Shown here piece by piece: positions 5,466 through 5,962 of a stretch of 64,000 nt of DNA (the stretch's first letter is position 1; every line of letters starts with the position of its first letter). This stretch comes from Octopus vulgaris. Its lineage: Eukaryota. The DNA lies in the NCBI GenBank assembly GCA_951406725.2, contig OX597824.1, forward strand, positions 97,030,001-97,094,000, in the 5' to 3' direction. Made by a program: the position numbers and the translations under genes. The notes below the pieces were generated by a model. It saw only the letters and a list, made by a program, of their open reading frames with translations, did not search any database and was not told the DNA's origin.

Positions 5466-5467
<2 letters not shown>

Positions 5468-5962
5468 GATGGGCCACAGCAAATATTCTGCTCAGTACCA
5501 CAGATTTGCTTGTCAGTTGCTTGACCTTAACCAGTTGAGCATGTCCCTTAGTGACTGACGATATGTGCATCTCTGATCACGAGCAGAAGTAGTGGGAGAG
5601 CTATGATGCTCCCCCACTACTTCTGCTCGTGATCAGAGATGCACGTATGTTGATAGGGATTATTTGGGGGTTTGAATAATTCACCTCTGGAAACATGGGT
5701 GTTTCGTTTAACATCCTTAAACAGCCCTTATTCAGGGACCTTTTGAGCAGGATGGGTTACTCGACCAGAAGAAAATTCTAACTGGGCCCCACCTACAAGG
5801 TCATGCGCTGTTTATCTTGATATGAGGTCACCATGTCGCACACATATGGTTGTGATGCATGTGCCGGGTGTACCTTATGAGACGGGTAGTCATGATGGGT
5901 ATACTGGGCTTCGTATATTTTACCCCAGTGTCACTTTGATGGCATGCACTGCTCTCTCACTC
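5466..5962 (+). mobile_element. (AAT)n-embedded non-coding element, copy 1, with 41-bp hairpin at 5561-5648
   Basis: About 7 differences from the reverse complement of 19773-20268; (AAT)n on both sides. Confidence 0.9.

Follow-up and report, generated by a model that had tools for sequence, protein, structure and literature searches.

Octopus genomes contain the tRNA-derived SINEs OK, OR1, and OR2. Of these, OR2 is cited in PMC4758252. Bipartite non-autonomous LINEs form another class, whose known sources, according to the 2018 list in PMC5786205, are limited to RTE, Ingi, Vingi, and R2, and the R2-derived members, the SIDEs, are described as having a 5′ ribozyme (PMC3414825). Among retrotransposons of the RLE type the Dong/R4 clade is of particular relevance here: Bombyx Dong is reported with TAA repeats upstream and a self-cleaving 5′ end (PMC3774820), and Dong-R4 elements are reported to occupy 92.7 Mb of the O. 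vulgaris genome and to have been recently active there (PMC13282606), while in O. bimaculoides they are described as being without recent activity (PMC9115989). Inverted repeats inside such elements may have a separate source, namely the template-switch event 3-1-2-4, which yields an inverted repeat with an inverted spacer and requires an inter-strand switch (PMC5453318); perfect hairpins are reported to arise in one step by such switches (PMC10710096).

The locus described here lies in a window of 64,000 nucleotides of O. vulgaris DNA and consists of two copies of a non-coding repeat together with the arrays that enclose them:

5466..5962, + strand: copy A, a 5′-truncated, hairpin-bearing copy of an AAT-embedded repeat family
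19773..20268, − strand: copy B, with the same ends as A, 98.6% identical to it, with a perfect 41-bp stem
5382..5465, + strand: (AAT)28 array 5′ of A
5963..6106, + strand: compound AAT/GAT/AAC array 3′ of A
20269..20335, − strand: (AAT)n array 5′ of B
19683..19772, − strand: (AAT)n array 3′ of B, adjoining the head of a second abundant repeat

When aligned end to end, A and B differ in 7 of 499 columns (6 substitutions and 1 indel), and the two have identical start and end points, each lying within an (AAT)n array. On none of the four sides are the outer flanks related, the best flank match having an E value of 0.21. In both respects the first-pass annotation, which had described two near-identical copies with common ends and unrelated surroundings, was borne out. 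No target-site duplication was found at A or B outside the AAT arrays, apart from one 8-mer, and the arrays themselves hide any such duplication.

Three further pieces of the same family were located in the window:

19084..19361, + strand: older family member, 84–86% identical, with 91 nt of 5′ sequence absent from A and B and with its 3′ half missing
18950..19022, + strand: piece from the 3′ end of another member, with (AAT)19 and, beyond it, the older member following
50767..50852, + strand: piece from the 3′ end of a further member, its AAT tail decayed

On the sense strand, the intact ends of all five family pieces adjoin AAT-type repeats. At 18950–19361 (+) two members stand head to tail around one common (AAT)19 array, an arrangement to be expected where the tails of old copies serve as insertion sites for new ones. 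The older member had been presented as a relative that extends further 5′ and lacks the hairpin; the first part holds, since it starts 91 nt further 5′, while the missing hairpin is due to a deletion of its own at the hairpin site, and because this deletion removed the hairpin region the older member cannot show the ancestral state. The last 85 nt of the element (5877–5959 in A) fold into a long stem-loop which none of 200 shuffles equalled, and which is weaker in three other copies (10, 16, and 41 of 200 shuffles as good); this predicted terminal 3′ structure is a possible candidate for a recognition structure.

The parent family was followed in public sequence runs by means of 50 sampled words of A. 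Among the 24 runs listed, 20 hold part of the words and 15 hold half or more (best share 0.72), and the runs with matching words come from five coded organisms and 13 studies. Four of the 24 runs, from three of the five coded organisms, among which the window's own species is possibly absent, were mapped onto copy B with short flanks: X1, X3, and X11 are DNA runs represented by contigs, and X23 is an RNA run represented by reads; the metagenome RNA runs X19 and X20, with a small word share, were left out. Matching contigs numbered 66,617, 59,895, and 23,809 in the three DNA runs and matching reads 5,002 in the RNA run, where it should be considered that contigs lose rare variants and that neither summed depth nor a contig tally equals copy number. 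These counts point to tens of thousands of copies of the parent family, which is abundant in several related organisms with its 3′ end in (AAT)n. At the subfamily sites 19968, 19978, and 20076 the pair's letter makes up 57–84% in X1 and X3 and 4–12% in X11, and X1 and X3 are taken as the relevant runs because the letter is common there.

In these runs the family continues 5′ behind 20268, past the start of the pair (56, 48, and 36 contigs in the DNA runs and 700 RNA reads), and its majority form extends about 91 nt further 5′ than A and B and has no hairpin. A cluster of 634 RNA reads contains a 5′ start identical to that of the older copy, and on these two observations a complete element probably measures about 555 bp and has a defined start. 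In X23 these reads (agreement 0.98) join element position 45, before 20224, to the full-length 5′ start; the joint may represent one expressed tandem or template-jump locus or, alternatively, a small circle. Exact element patterns had no match in metagenome, prokaryote-genome, or viral contigs, and a shorter pattern that hit two metagenome loci was rejected, the hits being chance 20-mers in bacterial DNA. A published description of the family or of six element motifs was not found in a literature search that lay outside most subscription journals and the Zenodo, Repbase, and Dfam libraries. As 893 unclassified recently active SINE families are reported for O. vulgaris (PMC13282606), the family is probably already contained in automated octopus repeat libraries.

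With the Dong/R4-clade RLE retrotransposons, both Bombyx Dong and octopus Dong-R4, the family shares its embedding in TAA/AAT repeats in one orientation, seen in 5 of 5 pieces in the window, and the 3′ AAT junction is general in the runs. It differs from them in having no open reading frame, and no ribozyme was found in the 5′ part of the older copy, which is about 15% diverged: neither Rfam nor a descriptor for a 5′ HDV-like ribozyme gave a match, and the pseudoknot skeleton was equalled or beaten by 94 of 150 shuffles. In a 5′ ribozyme the family may likewise differ from the R2 SIDEs, which it resembles, together with the derivatives of RTE, Ingi, and Vingi, in being short and non-coding, without a small-RNA head, and with a defined 3′ end. 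The parent family also appears, from the two observations above, to have a defined 5′ start as bipartite derivatives do, while A and B are without the family's 5′ end. Mobilisation of the parent family by an AAT-targeting Dong/R4 LINE is plausible. A further reading would make the parent a headless bipartite LINE derivative of about 555 bp, residing in tens of thousands of octopod (AAT)n arrays and stemming from Dong/R4, a clade absent from the 2018 list of sources; its truncated copies, the present pair among them, could still move and keep uniform ends, as the AAT at either side would serve as primer and homology. This reading is offered as tentative and is rather doubtful.

The SINE-like traits of the family are its small size, its non-coding sequence, its presence in 23,809–66,617 contigs per DNA run, and AAT at its 3′ end. 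Like the tRNA-derived OK, OR1, and OR2 it is short, very abundant, and non-coding, and unlike them it has no tRNA-like head, a distinction drawn from head structure and not from sequence. ARAGORN found no tRNA and Rfam no family at gathering score, with none relevant by E-value, the full 5′ part being represented by one decayed copy; in neither A nor the older copy was an A box seen ahead of a B box, and the longest frame of the element had no homolog among longer proteins. The description of the element as non-coding, without a tRNA head, and embedded in (AAT)n in one orientation thus stood. Two other element kinds found no support: a MITE, as no terminal inverted repeats were found and the only inverted repeat detected is internal (element positions 96–183), and a retrozyme, as no hammerhead core motif was present on either strand of A or of the older copy and Rfam gave no match.

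The search for RLE remnants, which had been said to occur in the window, covered 141 of 237 high-complexity stop-free frames and one more, and the scanned frames returned an APE-type reverse transcriptase, a mariner transposase, and a weak C2H2 finger but no RLE match, so that this statement was not upheld. The reverse transcriptase remnant at 17728–18096 belongs to a decayed APE-type LINE at 16900–18100 (−); its closest named relatives are in Argonauta hians and Octopus sinensis, and because these relatives carry APE domains it is not from an RLE element. A frameshifted stretch at about 7700–8300 (−) resembles an RLE-type C-terminus by eye and gave no Pfam or homolog match. A broken mariner transposase (HTH_48, weak Transposase_1) lies at 22666–23274 (+), and the 3′ end of a LINE reading frame with the weak C2H2 finger, RTE-like by eye, at 47980–48399 (−). 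The second abundant SINE-like repeat occurs in at least nine pieces, including 7465–7636, 11137–11265, 19432–19598, 33098–33405, 37952–38119, 50028–50254, and 52273–52686, and two of its heads beside copy B are preceded by AAT runs. Throughout the window ARAGORN detected no tRNA, and Rfam detected no family at gathering score.

The hairpin that distinguishes the pair was resolved as follows:

5561..5601, + strand: left arm in A, normal family sequence, element positions 96–136
5602..5648, + strand: loop and right arm in A, a reverse-complement copy of family sequence in place of 13 nt (putative template-switch product)
20086..20173, − strand: hairpin in B, with left arm 20173–20133, loop 20132–20127, and right arm 20126–20086

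All 41 positions of the stem pair in B, and 39 of the 41 do so in A; the loop has 6 nt. The predicted RNA hairpin energies are −84.9 kcal/mol for B and −77.6 kcal/mol for A, and the fold of A is better than all of 100 shuffles (z −8.66). The reported 41-bp stem is therefore real, and the view that the fold-back is inherited also agrees with its presence in both copies by descent from one ancestor. Against miRNA models it gave only generic matches below gathering score.

The origin of the hairpin can be read from the mapped runs. Loose contig ends behind 20134 (162, 208, and 79 contigs in X1, X3, and X11, respectively) lead out of the loop and continue as the ordinary sequence of the family further downstream, which identifies the loop as inverted family sequence; 118 RNA reads of X23 contain the matching strand-changing joint 20090–20134, and together these contigs, running from right arm and loop into ordinary sequence, and this joint indicate that the family majority is without the hairpin. 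Compared with the family, A and B have 13 nt replaced by a 47-nt reverse-complement copy with switch-point identities of 2 nt and 1 nt, and the inverted copy in the hairpin covers 49 nt of the family's own sequence, with the loop inverted. The spacer is thus the reverse complement of the ancestral sequence, which is the mark of type 3-1-2-4, and with the 1–2 nt switch-point identity and the perfect stem obtainable in one step the case agrees with that type as defined by Loytynoja and Goldman (2017). Because this type needs an inter-strand switch, the hairpin would have arisen as a DNA-level mutation in one genomic copy and not as a fold-back during reverse transcription. Unlike the usual 3-1-2-4 case the hairpin of A and B lies inside a high-copy repeat and was apparently duplicated along with it. 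One A-to-G change in the stem of A was considered as a trace of RNA editing, and hence of an RNA step, and is too little for such use.

The pair itself was found to be rare in the runs mapped by three measures: 5′ flank depth, shared alleles, and word share. Relative to adjacent depth, the AAT flank 5′ of the pair's start stands at 0.068, 0.118, and 0.066% in the three DNA runs, while the 3′ AAT flank retains 57.7, 55.1, and 52.5% in the same runs, and this retention of 52–58% demonstrates that the mapping detects AAT junctions. Changes common to A and B against the family majority number about 13, including two indels. Their frequency was estimated from variant rows in which at least one run has a different majority letter, of which 20 were used out of 40 listed, with 122 more existing; 3 of the 20 are private to B, 4 split the family into large subfamilies, 2 concern one G-run indel, and 11 are common to A and B. 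Among the rows listed 8 of the 11 shared substitutions stand at no more than 5.8% of DNA depth as non-majority letters (lowest 2.2, 1.7, and 0.6%), which is level with the B-private site 19785 (2.1, 1.9, and 0.7%), while the other 3 are common variants at 6–27% in the DNA runs. As to word share, 390 of 469 words of A (83%) are free of A-private changes, so that a run with many copies of the ancestor would be expected to hold about 83% or more of the words; the best run holds 72%, a gap that rests on 50 words. The hairpin junction was in none of the 24 pieces listed out of about 151,000, nor in any joint listed, and unbroken reads yield no joint row. These data do not support the proposed subfamily, one amplified recently and marked by a hairpin and a fixed 5′ end, given the 0.07–0.12% depth of the 5′ flank, the shared alleles at the noise floor, and a family majority which is hairpin-free and longer at its 5′ end. 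The outcome that the first-pass annotation had itself set against its proposal, a local inverted duplication or conversion, now fits best.

The history that is considered to account for the pair, at about an even chance, is that A and B are one aged 5′-truncated hairpin copy which was duplicated once, locally, by break repair guided by the AAT arrays or by end-to-end conversion. In this scenario the parent family would be a non-autonomous retroelement moved by a Dong/R4-type LINE targeting (TAA)n, and one of its copies would have inserted, 5′-truncated, at a 2-nt AA microhomology with an AAT array. It would then have gathered about 13 changes from the family majority, and an inter-strand template switch (3-1-2-4) would have put the 47-nt reverse-complement copy in place of 13 nt, creating the 41-bp stem and the inverted loop. 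An AAT array 14 kb away would have broken and been repaired by synthesis from the truncated copy between the AAT arms or, alternatively, a resident copy would have been converted end to end. Either step would leave an inverted duplicate that carries the hairpin, the two ends, and every shared change. A local DNA event is favoured because it accounts in one step for the spacing of the copies, for their ends, for the hairpin, and for the shared changes, and, since they would come from a single local copying, the hairpin and the "fixed" 5′ end would be passengers and not functional parts of the element. The sequence holds no direct trace of the repair event. By a rate borrowed from PMC13282606 (0.0036 per My) the two copies would have separated roughly 2 My ago (0.8–4 My), and by the same kind of rough estimate the divergence of their lineage from the family majority would date back as far as about 10 My.

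The rival which comes closest to the original proposal, a young retrotransposed subfamily that is small or species-restricted, is judged unlikely. It supposes a truncated hairpin master read through from an outside promoter, where (AAU)n at both RNA ends would have a role in priming reverse transcription as well as in annealing at the 5′ junction, which would give uniform ends. The intact 3′ end and the clean AAT embedding of both copies accord with it, as do a proposed role of upstream target sequence on the RNA for uniform 5′ junctions in R2 (PMC3774820) and the 1129 recent Dong-R4 insertions in five families reported for O. vulgaris (PMC13282606, Table 1). It is also favoured by RNA run X23, where depth over the 5′ AAT flank amounts to 3.7% of the adjacent depth, a value that counts against local duplication and may come from a few expressed loci. 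The depth bounds leave room for some tens to a few hundred copies, but for an assumed genome of 2.7 Gb dispersal would give 0.05 chance pairs within 14 kb for 100 copies and 1.3 for 500, so that about 500 would be needed for one expected pair genome-wide; at copy numbers within these bounds dispersal is an unlikely source of the pair. The low 5′ flank depth and the shared alleles at the noise floor also speak against the subfamily, as does the absence from the pair of the family's 5′ 91 nt, and a fold-back of nascent cDNA would not give an inverted loop, as follows from the event types in PMC5453318.

An inversion by staggered breaks was considered improbable. Here the 13.8-kb segment between A and B would have been flipped, with breaks in AAT arrays, and the element duplicated in inverted orientation at the breakpoints. 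The geometry is appropriate, A pointing rightward and B leftward with unrelated outer flanks, and in PMC1885836 inverted duplications such as staggered breaks leave are given for 17 of 29 inversions. The 5′ flank of B is triplet-periodic (0.39, against a window 90th percentile of 0.38) and the array 3′ of A is compound, which amounts to a weak hint that the two were once joined; against this, no repeat is split and no change of strand skew occurs at the ends. Last, the pair may be an artefact of assembly, two alleles or a misplaced read having put one locus in twice. Allelic differences in octopus span a range which includes the 1.4% divergence of the pair, but as a false duplication would bring its flanks along, and those of A and B are unrelated on all four sides, this explanation is very improbable.

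In summary, the most likely reading of the pair, local duplication, makes it an ordinary accident of copying, and it indicates that microsatellite-flanked repeats copied locally with exact ends can mimic a young subfamily, which calls for caution in the dating of repeats in microsatellite-rich genomes. If transcribed, a stem of 41 perfect base pairs that matches a high-copy repeat could seed small RNAs or undergo editing. The parent family matters more than the pair: an origin from Dong/R4, if true, would add a clade to the sources of headless non-autonomous elements and would help to explain the AAT-linked repeats of octopods.
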